Source: Escherichia coli | Lineage (GTDB): Bacteria; Pseudomonadota; Gammaproteobacteria; Enterobacterales; Enterobacteriaceae | Reading direction: 5' to 3' (one strand) | Assembly (NCBI RefSeq): GCF_016026235.1 | Contig: NZ_CP065613.1 | DNA: 64,000 nucleotides | Part shown: positions 55,530-59,775 of the stretch, one piece after another | Layout: every line of letters begins with the position of its first letter | Position numbering within the stretch: the first letter of the stretch is position 1 | Notes under the pieces: model-generated | The model's input: only the letters and a program-made list of their open reading frames with translations | Told to the model about the DNA's origin: nothing | The model's database searches: none | Position numbers and translations under genes: made by a program

Positions 55530-57533
55530 ATGATTATGAGTGAAAATGATACAATCCCAAAGAAGTCTACAAGTCAGATTAACAAAGCGGTATTCTTTAC
55601 ATCTGCTTTGCTAATTTTCCTTCTTGTCGCCTTTGCCGCCGTATTCCCGGATGTCGCCGACAAAAATTTTAAACTACTTCAGCAACAAATCTTCACGAAT
55701 GCCAGCTGGTTCTACATCCTTGCTGTGGCCCTGATTTTACTGAGTGTCACGTTCCTTGGACTCTCACGCTACGGTGATATCAAGCTGGGCCCGGACCATG
55801 CGCAGCCTGATTTCAGCTACCACTCCTGGTTTGCGATGCTTTTTTCGGCAGGGATGGGGATCGGCCTGATGTTCTTTGGCGTTGCCGAACCTGTAATGCA
55901 TTATCTTTCGCCACCCGTAGGCACTCCAGAAACCGTTGCGGCAGCTAAGGAAGCAATGCGTCTGACCTTTTTCCACTGGGGACTGCACGCATGGGCAATT
56001 TATGCCATTGTGGCGCTGATTCTGGCGTTCTTCAGTTACCGTCACGGTCTGCCTTTAACTCTGCGCTCCGCACTCTATCCCATTATTGGCGATCGCATAT
56101 ACGGACCTGTAGGACATGCGGTTGATATTTTCGCTGTTATAGGCACGGTCTTTGGCGTTGCGACATCACTGGGTTACGGTGTTTTGCAGGTGAATGCCGG
56201 TTTGAACCATCTTTTCGGGGTGCCCATCAATGAAACGGTGCAGGTAATTCTGATCGTGGTCATCACGGGGTTAGCGACGATTTCAGTGGTGTCCGGTCTG
56301 GATAAGGGAATACGTATCCTGTCTGAACTCAATCTGGGTCTGGCTTTGTTGCTCCTGGCGCTGGTCCTGTGTCTGGGACCAACCGTGCTTCTGCTGAAGT
56401 CATTTGTGGAAAATACGGGCGGTTATCTTTCGGAACTGGTGAGTAAAACGTTCAACCTTTACGCGTATGAGCCCAAGTCGAGCAACTGGCTGGGGGGCTG
56501 GACATTACTGTACTGGGGATGGTGGCTTTCATGGTCGCCGTTTGTGGGGATGTTCATCGCACGGGTCTCCCGCGGGCGAACCATTCGCGAGTTTGTCACC
56601 GGCGTGCTGTTTGTTCCCGCGGGTTTTACGCTAATGTGGATGACGGTGTTTGGTAACAGCGCGATCTATCTCATTATGAACCAGGGGGCCACAGACCTCG
56701 CCAATACTGTTCAGCAGGATGTGGCGCTGGCCCTGTTTAATTTCCTGGAGCATTTCCCGTTCTCTTCTGTGCTGTCATTCATTGCAATGGCGATGGTCAT
56801 CGTCTTCTTTGTAACGTCTGCTGATTCGGGGGCAATGGTTGTGGATACTCTGGCATCAGGTGGAGTGGCAAACACACCCGTCTGGCAGCGAATATTCTGG
56901 GCCTCGCTCATGGGCATTGTTGCAATTGCGCTTCTCCTTGCCGGAGGGCTAAGTGCGCTGCAAACGGTGACAATAGCGAGTGCATTGCCCTTCTCAGTGA
57001 TCTTACTAATATCTATATACGGACTTTTAAAAGCTTTGCGCCGGGATTTGACCAAGCGTGAAAGCCTGAGCATGGCGACAATTGCTCCTACGGCTGCACG
57101 TAACCCAATTCCTTGGCAGAGAAGGTTACGCAATATCGCGTATCTGCCGAAGCGATCTCTTGTGAAACGTTTTATGGACGACGTTATCCAGCCCGCCATG
57201 ACGCTGGTTCAGGAGGAACTGAACAAGCAGGGGACGATAAGCCACATTAGTGATGCAGTCGACGATCGTATTCGTCTTGAAGTCGATTTGGGCAACGAGC
57301 TGAATTTTATATATGAAGTGAGGCTTCGCGGGTATATCTCACCGACCTTCGCGCTCGCCGCAATGGATAATGATGAGCAGCAGACTGAACAACATCGATA
57401 TTATCGCGCTGAGGTTTATCTCAAAGAAGGCGGTCAAAATTATGATGTGATGGGCTGGAACCAGGAACAGCTGATTAATGACATACTGGACCAGTACGAA
57501 AAACACCTGCACTTCCTGCACCTGGTTCGTTAA
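55530..57533 (+). CDS. BCCT-family transporter, BetT-like (choline / quaternary-amine uptake)
   Basis: 667-aa ORF collinear with E. coli BetT as I recall it (GPxxxxPEFSxxSW, AAGIGIxLMFFxVAEP, ARISRGRTIR, SADSGA..., long cytoplasmic C-terminal tail ending ...DILDQYEKHLHFLHLVR vs BetT ...DILDQYERHLNFIHL); start may be ATG 55536. Confidence 0.8.
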   Translation: MIMSENDTIPKKSTSQINKAVFFTSALLIFLLVAFAAVFPDVADKNFKLLQQQIFTNASWFYILAVALILLSVTFLGLSRYGDIKLGPDHAQPDFSYHSWFAMLFSAGMGIGLMFFGVAEPVMHYLSPPVGTPETVAAAKEAMRLTFFHWGLHAWAIYAIVALILAFFSYRHGLPLTLRSALYPIIGDRIYGPVGHAVDIFAVIGTVFGVATSLGYGVLQVNAGLNHLFGVPINETVQVILIVVITGLATISVVSGLDKGIRILSELNLGLALLLLALVLCLGPTVLLLKSFVENTGGYLSELVSKTFNLYAYEPKSSNWLGGWTLLYWGWWLSWSPFVGMFIARVSRGRTIREFVTGVLFVPAGFTLMWMTVFGNSAIYLIMNQGATDLANTVQQDVALALFNFLEHFPFSSVLSFIAMAMVIVFFVTSADSGAMVVDTLASGGVANTPVWQRIFWASLMGIVAIALLLAGGLSALQTVTIASALPFSVILLISIYGLLKALRRDLTKRESLSMATIAPTAARNPIPWQRRLRNIAYLPKRSLVKRFMDDVIQPAMTLVQEELNKQGTISHISDAVDDRIRLEVDLGNELNFIYEVRLRGYISPTFALAAMDNDEQQTEQHRYYRAEVYLKEGGQNYDVMGWNQEQLINDILDQYEKHLHFLHLVR

Positions 57534-57580
57534 TAGCAACATGCCGTCCTGGGGGCGGCAATTATTATCCCGGCCGCAAT

Positions 57581-58873
57581 ATGAGGGAATGCAGAATGAT
57601 TTCACGCTGGAAATGGATGCTGAAGCAGACAATTAAAAAACTATGGTTCAGGGCAACGTTATTCGCAATTGTCGCGATAATAACGGCCCTTTTATCAATT
57701 CTTTTTAAATCAATGATACCTGAGTCGGTTTCCGTGAAGGTTGGTGCGGAAGCAGTCGATAACATTCTGAACATACTGGCATCGAGTATGCTGGCAGTGA
57801 CCACATTTTCGCTGAGTATCATGGTCACAGCCTACGGTTCAGCCACTACTAATGTGACTCCCAGAGCTACGCGTTTAGTTGTTGAAGACGTCACCACACA
57901 AAATGTACTGGCCACCTTCATCGGTTCTTTTCTCTTCAGTCTGGTAGGGATTATTGCCCTCAATATGGGAGCTTATGGAGAAAGGGGGAGAGTCATTTTA
58001 TTCATTGTCACACTGGTTGTCATTGCCTTAATCCTCATCACATTGCTTCGCTGGATACAGCATTTGACCTCTCTGGGGAGGGTTGGTGAGACAACGGCAC
58101 AAGTAGAACAGGCGGCCATCGAAACATTTATTGCGAGAGCAAGAAATCCCTGTCTCGGCGGATATCCATGGCTTGAGAACAATGAACAGCCGAAAGGAAC
58201 GGTTGCAGTTTATCCGAAGAAGATTGGCTATGTTGAATATATTGATATGGTGAAACTTAGCAAGCTGCTGACCAATGATCCCCGTCATGTATACCTCGTG
58301 GCGCAGCCAGGCAGTTTCATACATCCGTCCATGCCAGTTTTGTACCTGAGTCAGGGCCAGGAGTCGTCAATCAACACCGATTTACTTGAGACGATTATTG
58401 TCTCGGATGCACGTTCATTTGCTCAGGATCCTCGATTTTGTCTTAGCGTCATGGCCGAAATAGCCTGCCGGGCCCTTTCCCCTGCAGTGAACGATCCTGG
58501 AACCGCCATTGATGTCATTGGCAGAGGTGTTCGTATACTTTCCACTTACGCGCAGAATAAATCTGATGAAATAGAAGTGAAATATCCTTCAGTACATGTT
58601 GCACCACTTCAGAATAACGATCTACTGGAAGACTTTTTCTCACCTGTCGCGCGCGATGGTGCCAGTATGAGGGAGATTCAGATAAGAGTCCTTAAAGGAC
58701 TGTCGATGCTGAGTAAAGGTTGGCCTGAGATATTTGCTGAAGCCGCACATATCCTGGCATTTGAAACATTAGAGCATGCAACTCGTGCTGACCATATAGA
58801 TTCTGATAGATATCTAATAAAATCAACTTATTATAATTTATTTAGTGGCGAATATTCTAATAAAAAAACATAG
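57581..58873 (+). CDS. DUF2254-family membrane protein
   Basis: 430-aa ORF with N-terminal TM segments and a large soluble C-terminal domain; family call from memory, moderate. Confidence 0.5.
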   Translation: MRECRMISRWKWMLKQTIKKLWFRATLFAIVAIITALLSILFKSMIPESVSVKVGAEAVDNILNILASSMLAVTTFSLSIMVTAYGSATTNVTPRATRLVVEDVTTQNVLATFIGSFLFSLVGIIALNMGAYGERGRVILFIVTLVVIALILITLLRWIQHLTSLGRVGETTAQVEQAAIETFIARARNPCLGGYPWLENNEQPKGTVAVYPKKIGYVEYIDMVKLSKLLTNDPRHVYLVAQPGSFIHPSMPVLYLSQGQESSINTDLLETIIVSDARSFAQDPRFCLSVMAEIACRALSPAVNDPGTAIDVIGRGVRILSTYAQNKSDEIEVKYPSVHVAPLQNNDLLEDFFSPVARDGASMREIQIRVLKGLSMLSKGWPEIFAEAAHILAFETLEHATRADHIDSDRYLIKSTYYNLFSGEYSNKKT

Positions 58874-59118
58874 CTGCAGAGCAAGCAATTCGGTTGTTGG
58901 CAAGTCAAGGGCAAAGCATTCGCGTGAGAATGGGCGTATGCTTTGTGCCAAAAGCAAACGTTGCTAATTCTGCACTGTTCAGCGATGGCGCAGTAGCGAC
59001 AGGCACTGCCACTGTCCAGTCGGCAAAAGCGAACACTTTGCCACTGCGGGGATAAACTGATTGAAGCTCTCGCGCAAAATCACTTATTCTTTTGACAATA
59101 AAATGTAGGAGATGGGTC

Positions 59119-59775
59119 ATGACAGGCGAAAATCGTGGCCGGGGAAGGCCGCGAAAGACAGAAAGTACCTATGCAGATACTCGTAATGATCTGATCCGCA
59201 GTGGCCTTGAACTGCTGACGCAGAATGGTTTTCTTGCGACGGGAGTCGATGCCATTGTTAAAAATGCCAATGTCCCTAAAGGCTCATTTTATTACTACTT
59301 TAAGAGTAAAGAGGATTATGCTCAGACCGTTCTGAACGCCTATGACAGTTTCTTCGAGCATAAACTCAAAAAACATCTACATGAATCATCCTGCACACCA
59401 ATGGTACGTCTGGAAAATTTCATCAATGATGCCTGTGAGGGGATTAAAAAATACAATTTTACCCGCGGCTGCCTGGTTGGAAATATGATGCAGGAGAGTC
59501 CGGAGCTTCCCCAATCCTTCATTAAAGTACTACAGAATATTCTTGAGAGCTGGCAGGCACTTGTTGCGGCCTGCCTGTCCGACGCGTTATCTTCAGGCGA
59601 AATAAGTTCAAATATGAATAATACACAACTGGCGGCTATTTTCTGGAGTGGCTGGGAAGGTGCGGTAATGCGTTCCAAACTATATTGTTCTACTGAGCCA
59701 GTGTACGACTTCTGGAGCTATTTCAAAACCTCGGTACGCTATCAGTCTTCTCAGGAAGCAACAACTGGCCAGTAA
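59119..59775 (+). CDS. TetR/AcrR-family transcriptional regulator
   Basis: N-terminal HTH (LTQNGFLATGVDAIVKNANVPKGSFYYYFKSKED); start taken at ATG 59119 (MTGENRGRG...); ORF track starts at 59092. Confidence 0.75.
   Translation: MTGENRGRGRPRKTESTYADTRNDLIRSGLELLTQNGFLATGVDAIVKNANVPKGSFYYYFKSKEDYAQTVLNAYDSFFEHKLKKHLHESSCTPMVRLENFINDACEGIKKYNFTRGCLVGNMMQESPELPQSFIKVLQNILESWQALVAACLSDALSSGEISSNMNNTQLAAIFWSGWEGAVMRSKLYCSTEPVYDFWSYFKTSVRYQSSQEATTGQ

Follow-up and report, generated by a model that had tools for sequence, protein, structure and literature searches.

Three co-directional genes lie between the insertion sequences (IS) IS600 and IS2 at positions 55,530 to 59,775 of a 64,000-nucleotide stretch of Escherichia coli DNA (assembly GCF_016026235.1, contig NZ_CP065613.1), called here the window. 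The first encodes a BCCT-family transporter, the second a DUF2254 membrane protein and the third a TetR-family regulator. The original prediction, made from the sequence alone, read them as a single module, possibly an osmoprotectant uptake unit acquired with the surrounding island, with a substrate it called unknown. We find that the genes very probably belong to two unrelated units, placed side by side by the history of an IS-rich island. One is a mobile cassette of two genes, betU and its DUF2254 neighbor. The other is a decayed acuR-acuI pair, from which the TetR gene comes. What stands of the earlier interpretation is the accessory, horizontally acquired osmoprotectant unit; the unknown substrate and the three-gene module do not.

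The case for two units begins with where homology stops. Together, betU and the DUF2254 gene form a compact 3.5-kb cassette. In pairwise comparison, the sequence common to its copies runs from about 258 bp upstream of betU to about 86 bp past the DUF2254 stop codon. Cassette homology in the window starts abruptly at 55427, at the IS600 insertion, and ends at 58955-58963. The same pair with the same boundaries is found on an IncFII plasmid of Klebsiella huaxiensis and, next to IS1, on an IncFIB plasmid of E. coli. It also occurs in two prophages: a Rac-like one of E. coli, as a 94.4% allele, and a lambdoid one beside icd/purB in Enterobacter asburiae, where it lies at the end. All four copies lack the TetR gene. 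The query matches about 1,270 plasmid records of Klebsiella; among the matches listed, coverage extends over the pair only. Because the pair occurs without the TetR gene in four other contexts with the same boundaries, the conserved mobile unit in these comparisons is the BCCT and DUF2254 genes, not all three. The TetR gene belongs to a separate homology block, and the predicted module comes apart at this point.

What, then, is the third gene? It lies in a block (58945-60024) that is 90% identical to the acuR-acuI locus of Enterobacter. Its product scores 267.1 bits against the NCBIfam AcuR equivalog model NF051457 (cut-off 247) and, aligned with a protein of Enterobacter hormaechei, agrees at 207 of 219 positions including the stop, about 95%. 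In E. hormaechei the regulator gene is convergent to one encoding a 327-residue zinc-dependent alcohol dehydrogenase, and this Enterobacter dehydrogenase exceeds the cut-off of the AcuI equivalog model NF051456 (481 bits against 440). Three different upstream contexts are seen for the Enterobacter pair, none with a BCCT or DUF2254 gene. The acuI that adjoins acuR in the window is a pseudogene remnant of 63 codons; it is intact in the homologous Enterobacter locus. By tblastn, 57 of its 63 residues are identical to Enterobacter AcuI, with an in-frame stop inside. Homology to E. coli 55989, to JJ1887 and to Enterobacter stops at 60024, where IS2 makes its cut (60024/60025). RefSeq labels the same remnant in 55989 and JJ1887 simply 'alcohol dehydrogenase'.

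Because cassette homology ends at 58955-58963 and the Enterobacter acuR-acuI block starts at 58945, gene 3 lies outside the cassette, as the survivor of a decayed acuR-acuI pair. The resemblance is to the AcuR-AcuI acrylate system: the window regulator passes the AcuR model and its Enterobacter counterpart's neighbor passes the AcuI model. The window differs from that system in that its acuI amounts to 63 codons with an internal stop, so that the unit would be non-functional for detoxification. Since the convergent target of the regulator is reduced to this remnant, AcuR is probably an orphan that does not regulate betU.

A true three-gene module, with the TetR protein controlling the BCCT and DUF2254 genes as BetI does betT, has to be weighed against this account. 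BetI, itself of the TetR family, regulates a BCCT gene; DddT is a transporter of dimethylsulfoniopropionate (DMSP); and AcuR belongs to DMSP/acrylate operons. Such a module might transport a sulfonium compound or a quaternary amine; DMSP, which is broken down to acrylate, would be an example. A thematic link of this kind is conceivable, and solved chains of the BCCT-family DddT match BetU in a sequence search of the PDB. The three genes also adjoin one another and point the same way, and 632 complete genomes contain the TetR segment. Yet the homology blocks meet between the second and third genes, as described above; the pair moves without the regulator in at least four other contexts; and the regulator's Enterobacter homolog accompanies acuI, without BCCT or DUF2254 genes, in all three of its upstream contexts. 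No DMSP lyase gene is present. An inverted repeat shared by the regions upstream of betU and acuR was looked for and none was seen. As the original prediction had noted, the regulator does not resemble BetI: identity is 24% over 67 residues, confined to the helix-turn-helix, and the score against the BetI equivalog model TIGR03384 is 29.6 bits, far below its cut-off of 201.3. We consider a three-gene module decidedly improbable, and we rejected the DMSP/acrylate reading of the trio because its two parts fall into different homology blocks, each with a history of its own.

The identity of the first gene follows from a comparison with Tn6062, an IS1 composite transposon on IncHI1 PST6 plasmids that carries two coding sequences, SPAP0105 and SPAP0106 (betU) (Holt et al. 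2011, PMC3139670). A 3,405-bp fragment with both coding sequences, cloned in pACYC184, enabled S. Typhi to grow at 0.8 M NaCl (PMC3139670). The primers of Holt et al. map to the two ends of the pair in the window, at 55465-55478 (forward core) and 58844-58869 (reverse, in the last DUF2254 codons), and predict an amplicon of about 3.4 kb. They fit the plasmid copies still better than the window copy. The IS1-adjacent E. coli plasmid copy shares 98.7% DNA identity with the window, and the BetU proteins are 99.8% identical. Because the primers map to both ends of the pair, the amplicon has the expected size and the DNA identity is 98.7%, we identify gene 1 by this correspondence as BetU, an accessory, betaine-specific BCCT osmoprotectant transporter. 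The substrate need no longer be called unknown: betU was first found in pyelonephritis E. coli as an uptake system for glycine betaine and proline betaine (PMC3139670), and Wood describes BetT as choline-specific and BetU as betaine-specific (PMC4411257).

The Tn6062 cargo of IncHI1 plasmids is thus the same two-gene unit, accessory and IS-flanked like the window cassette. The settings differ: the cassette studied here is chromosomal, in a fec-adjacent island, with IS600 upstream and the acuR segment downstream, whereas Tn6062 is bracketed by two IS1 copies. The window copy is not Tn6062 itself, because its flanks lack IS1 copies on both sides.

Profile models place the protein in the expected family. 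It passes the BCCT model TIGR00842 (541.3 bits, cut-off 407.55) and the NCBIfam BetT model NF007399 (751 bits, cut-off 695), which is a subfamily model and not an equivalog; against the NCBIfam glycine-betaine BCCT equivalog it scores 592.3, below the cut-off of 650. Strong matches to solved BCCT chains were obtained in the PDB sequence search. Alignment with K-12 BetT gives 42% identity over 672 columns, full length and including the C-terminal tail, and so bears out the predicted collinearity. The two proteins share the BCCT fold, the same length and a homologous long C-terminal tail. They differ in context, in that the choline:H+ symporter BetT is encoded at the bet locus with betIBA and betU has no betIBA neighbors; as predicted, it lies away from that locus and adjoins IS600 and the DUF2254 gene.

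They also differ in the motif for substrate and coupling, GIGID in BetT and GMGIG in BetU, and in reported substrate, choline for the one and betaine for the other. The sequence AGMGIGLMF in BetU is that of wild-type BetP, whereas BetT and a solved 'high-affinity choline transport protein' have AGIGIDLMF. At the position of BetP G153, BetU has Gly where BetT has Asp, and the G153D variant of BetP is choline-specific. BetU and BetP of Corynebacterium glutamicum (structures such as 2WIT) therefore have in common an identical motif and betaine as substrate; the BetP match is limited to the membrane core, BetU residues 13-513, to which BetU adds a long tail of BetT type (about 150 residues). Of the solved chains that span the tail, the closest is 8ybq, of 685 residues. 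Together with 8ybr, this 'BCCT family transporter' aligns with BetU residues 9-665 and could serve as a modelling template for the regulatory domain.

Could the protein instead be a second choline transporter, a BetT paralogue, as the RefSeq labels on many plasmid copies have it? It does pass NF007399 and aligns with BetT from end to end. That reading is nonetheless extremely unlikely: BetU is called betaine-specific in the literature, it has the Gly whose replacement by Asp makes BetP choline-specific, and its locus lacks the betIBA genes for choline oxidation. For betaine over choline, the GMGIG motif serves as a sequence proxy only. RefSeq names the chromosomal copies 'BCCT family transporter' and the plasmid copies 'choline BCCT transporter BetT'. 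The latter label is probably a misnomer, applied because BetU passes the NF007399 subfamily model, and it is likely that betU copies are systematically misnamed by this route.

How common is the locus? Among 5,426 complete E. coli genomes, canonical betT is present in 5,181 (95.5%, near-core), whereas some part of the betU-DUF2254 pair is present in 1,964 (about 36%). At least 80% of the pair is found in 1,378 genomes and at least 80% of the TetR segment in 632, so the trio is no part of the core genome. The counts by themselves require that betT and betU occur together in at least 1,700 genomes; one example is NZ_CP023834.1, where betT lies at 0.34 Mb and the betU-DUF2254 pair at 4.63 Mb. The locus is accessory and is not the only betT-type gene of its genome. 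These counts agree with the predicted acquisition of an osmoprotectant uptake unit with the island, in the form of an accessory, horizontally acquired BetT paralogue. Ly et al. 2004 (J Bacteriol 186:296) reportedly described BetU of uropathogenic E. coli and are reported to have found betU in about a third of isolates, with insertion sequences flanking it; the frequency and the flanks seen here agree with both points.

The vehicles of the cassette are varied. In some E. coli it is cargo of a Rac-like prophage. Other E. coli have, at the same Rac-like site, betU followed by an open reading frame (ORF) that fuses the N-terminal 64% or so of DUF2254 to a TrkH-domain protein. The loci behind these observations are L005 (7007-10345) and L100 (3940-7575). 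We take this site to correspond to the trkG cargo position of Rac in K-12. Ly et al. 2004 are said to have surveyed trkG, the other accessory osmoregulatory gene, together with betU. In Enterobacter asburiae (L095, 5178-9278) the cassette follows tail-fiber genes and an invertase, so that this prophage is a second vehicle, independent of the first. In the plasmids of Klebsiella and E. coli that were examined (L002, 11568-15508; L003, 9884-12208), a SulP anion transporter gene and then a universal stress protein gene lie downstream, and on the Klebsiella plasmid a DMT transporter gene also adjoins the cassette; together these genes amount to a small region of stress-related cargo. The Rac-borne allele (L005) diverges from the window at synonymous sites by 0.33 in betU and by only 0.09 in DUF2254, a gap that implies, at the sequence level, recombination inside the cassette. 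The protein cluster that contains BetU at 90% identity also includes DUF2254 members of 425 residues, and a separate search returned a DUF2254 homolog of 589 residues (P0031). The clustering of BetU with DUF2254 is probably an artifact of read-through or fusion gene calls over the short spacer.

The more puzzling member of the cassette is the DUF2254 protein. It is a full-length match to Pfam PF10011 (E 5.8e-93, model positions 3-366 of 368), a family that contains both knotted and unknotted AlphaFold models (PMC11184937). In AlphaFold models, the N-terminal membrane part consists of long helices at low confidence, which we read as four transmembrane segments. The cytoplasmic domain of about 260 residues is modelled with high confidence (pLDDT 92.8 when modelled alone) as a small beta subdomain and an alpha-solenoid-like helical part. 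The motifs TTQN, QDPRF, NDPGTAI and ARD are invariant across Proteobacteria. Structure searches found no informative match to a solved structure, and the literature searched contained no functional study of the family; the original prediction, too, assigned this protein no role. A defense-system role, considered in view of the prophage cargo position, was rejected; PADLOC gave no hits, the PHROGs families matched are of unknown function and no phage genome record matched.

Is the DUF2254 gene maintained with betU? In five independent contexts its reading frame is unbroken and does not vary in length. The ratio of non-synonymous to synonymous substitution rates (dN/dS) is 0.07-0.26 for DUF2254 and 0.02-0.045 for betU; DUF2254 is under purifying selection, much less tight than that on betU. 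The two genes are separated by 62 bp. We found no promoter-like site in this spacer; its hairpin lacks a proper T tract and is followed by a GAGG Shine-Dalgarno sequence. Overall counts in the hairpin and promoter search were not above those of shuffled controls, which makes it weak evidence either way. The spacer suggests that co-transcription is likely.

To ask what the family does elsewhere, we surveyed the gene neighborhoods of the 80 best DUF2254 loci from different species. A BCCT, NhaA, ClC, CPA1 or SulP gene lies within 3 kb in 26 of them. The immediate neighbor is a BCCT gene in 9 loci, NhaA in 10, ClC in 7 and a CPA1 Na+/H+ exchanger in 5. BCCT adjacency takes three arrangements, in at least 3-4 separate clades of a neighbor-joining DUF2254 tree: BCCT precedes DUF2254 in Enterobacteriaceae, follows it in Pantoea/Mixta, and precedes it in Agrobacterium/Rhizobium. 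In several Pseudomonas species, nhaA lies on one side of DUF2254 and either a ClC gene or a CPA1 Na+/H+ exchanger gene on the other, often with TAXI-TRAP transporter genes in the vicinity (L034, L052, L066, L047, L050 and L059, at about 4400-8700). Because BCCT, NhaA, ClC and CPA1 genes adjoin it in several lineages, gene context suggests that DUF2254 may act alongside secondary transporters in salt and osmotic homeostasis. The link to ion and osmolyte transporter genes, as read from gene context, appears to be new.

Several points count against the account given here. The intact AcuR beside betU could have been co-opted as its regulator. The identity of BetU is indirect, through Holt et al. 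and the mapping of their primers. About 586 betU-positive genomes (around 30%), E. coli B among them, lack an intact DUF2254, so that the protein looks dispensable. No BCCT gene lies near about 70 of the 80 DUF2254 loci, and the neighbor counts are not phylogenetically independent, many loci being from Pseudomonas. A Serratia marcescens protein, placed with BetU by sequence cluster and not by computed identity to the window protein, stands alone beside the core genes lysS/prfB. The fragment cloned by Holt et al. carried betU and DUF2254 together (PMC3139670).

Some of these points favor a different view of DUF2254, as a mere passenger linked to betU by proximity and unrelated to betaine uptake or osmotic stress. 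The Serratia protein, the truncated DUF2254 beside an intact betU and the scarcity of BCCT neighbors all speak for it, as does a dN/dS several-fold to about ten-fold above that of betU. A passenger would not be expected to show the recurrence described above, however, in which the adjacency takes three arrangements in Enterobacteriaceae, Pantoea/Mixta and Rhizobiaceae and identity among the DUF2254 proteins is only 47-50%, nor to have other recurrent neighbors that are likewise ion or osmolyte transporters. Purifying selection, an intact DUF2254 in every mobile copy examined and a short spacer without a promoter-like site also argue against it. We regard the passenger view as somewhat unlikely.

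The examined betU-positive genomes without an intact DUF2254, including E. coli B, have the gene truncated by IS911. In E. coli B (BLR(DE3), L098, 5007-8582) betU is intact and DUF2254 is cut after about 113 codons, which makes E. coli B a natural 'betU only' strain; many clinical genomes have the same truncation (1-2407). From context, DUF2254 would not be required for transport by BetU, and no obligate partnership is indicated. A broader idea, that DUF2254 proteins are a widespread class of membrane-anchored accessory or regulatory partners of BCCT, NhaA, ClC and CPA1 transporters, and that the member in the cassette tunes the accumulation or release of betaine, is offered as a doubtful proposal. 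It is less likely that DUF2254 proteins are themselves ion or solute channels.

Returning to the two-unit reading, the gene identities, the cassette boundaries, the distribution and the selection on both cassette genes come from the present analysis, betaine specificity and the osmotolerance given by the two-gene fragment come from the literature, and co-transcription, the role of DUF2254 and the orphan state of AcuR are inferences. We envisage the following. The first unit, from 55427 to about 58960, would be the mobile betU-DUF2254 cassette. BetU, a secondary transporter, would import glycine betaine and proline betaine in response to rising external osmolality, and its cytoplasmic C-terminal tail, like those of BetT and BetP, would presumably be the osmosensing switch. 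DUF2254 would probably be read from the betU transcript and may have a part in homeostasis, ionic or osmotic. Its most plausible form would be a membrane-anchored protein that assists or regulates secondary transporters without being essential for BetU activity. The second unit, 58945-60024, would be a decayed acrylate-detoxification pair, with its AcuR-type TetR repressor intact and the target acuI lost down to 63 codons.

The coordinates of the features are collected in Table 1. The three ORFs and both flanking elements were found as predicted, and profile matches confirm the BCCT, DUF2254 and TetR assignments. The longest plus-strand ORFs are 55530-57533 (667 residues), 57581-58873 (430 residues) and 59092-59775 (227 residues, TTG start). 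Shorter starts are likely: 55536 for betU (665 residues), 57596 for DUF2254 (425 residues, 'MISRW...') and 59119 for the TetR gene (218 residues). They follow from the way RefSeq annotates the identical DNA of E. coli 55989 and from alignment of homologs.

Table 1. Features of the betU-DUF2254 and acuR-acuI segments and their flanks (window positions).
Feature	Coordinates	Strand	Basis or remark
IS600 (IS3 family) transposase ORFs	54229-54528, 54564-55382 (span 54229..55382)	+	element right end ~55426
109 bp left of betU upstream region	55427..55535	+	IS600 inserted at -109
betU, BCCT betaine transporter, 665 residues	55536..57533	+	profile models, BetT alignment, PDB sequence matches, primer mapping
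GC-rich hairpin, 8 pairs, in 62-bp betU-DUF2254 spacer	57542..57560	+	
DUF2254 (PF10011) membrane protein, = SPAP0105 of Tn6062	57596..58873	+	
Cassette 3' flank; 12-bp-arm inverted repeat at 58912-58945	58874..58960	+	
acuR-type TetR-family regulator, 218 residues	59119..59775	+	within segment 58945-60024
acuI (acrylyl-CoA reductase) remnant, last 63 codons and stop	59833..60024	-	truncated by IS2
IS2 transposase ORFs	60036-60941, 60899-61309 (span 60036..61309)	-	element begins ~60025

An 'IS3-like element IS600 family transposase' is annotated at the equivalent upstream position in JJ1887 and BLR(DE3), and an 'IS3-like element IS2 family transposase' under the match to the downstream element. 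The wider window is a fec-adjacent island with genes of shf/capU/virK/lpxM type, as in 55989/O104:H4. Between the fec operon and IS600 (50172-54048) lie a polysaccharide deacetylase gene (shf-like), capU, virK and a second lpxM (msbB2-type), in an arrangement identical to that of E. coli 55989/O104:H4. Genes of these types are better known from virulence plasmids.

What these results add should be kept in proportion. The finding is essentially already known, and the remaining interest lies in the DUF2254 partner. E. coli has few accessory genes for osmoregulation, and betU is one of them. What moves is always the two-gene cassette, which is very widespread, in about 36% of complete E. coli genomes, in more than 1,200 Klebsiella plasmid records and in prophages, and many database copies of betU are probably mislabelled as the choline transporter BetT. 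The TetR gene beside the cassette is left over from a different system and is not to be taken for its regulator. For the IncHI1 PST6 typhoid plasmid, dominant worldwide, the Tn6062 cargo was the one benefit to growth, drug resistance aside, that Holt et al. found (PMC3139670). The published osmotolerance experiment used both genes together, and its phenotype is that of the pair. If DUF2254 proteins do act as partners of such transporters, this one would contribute to the salt tolerance that Tn6062 gives the H58 typhoid lineage.

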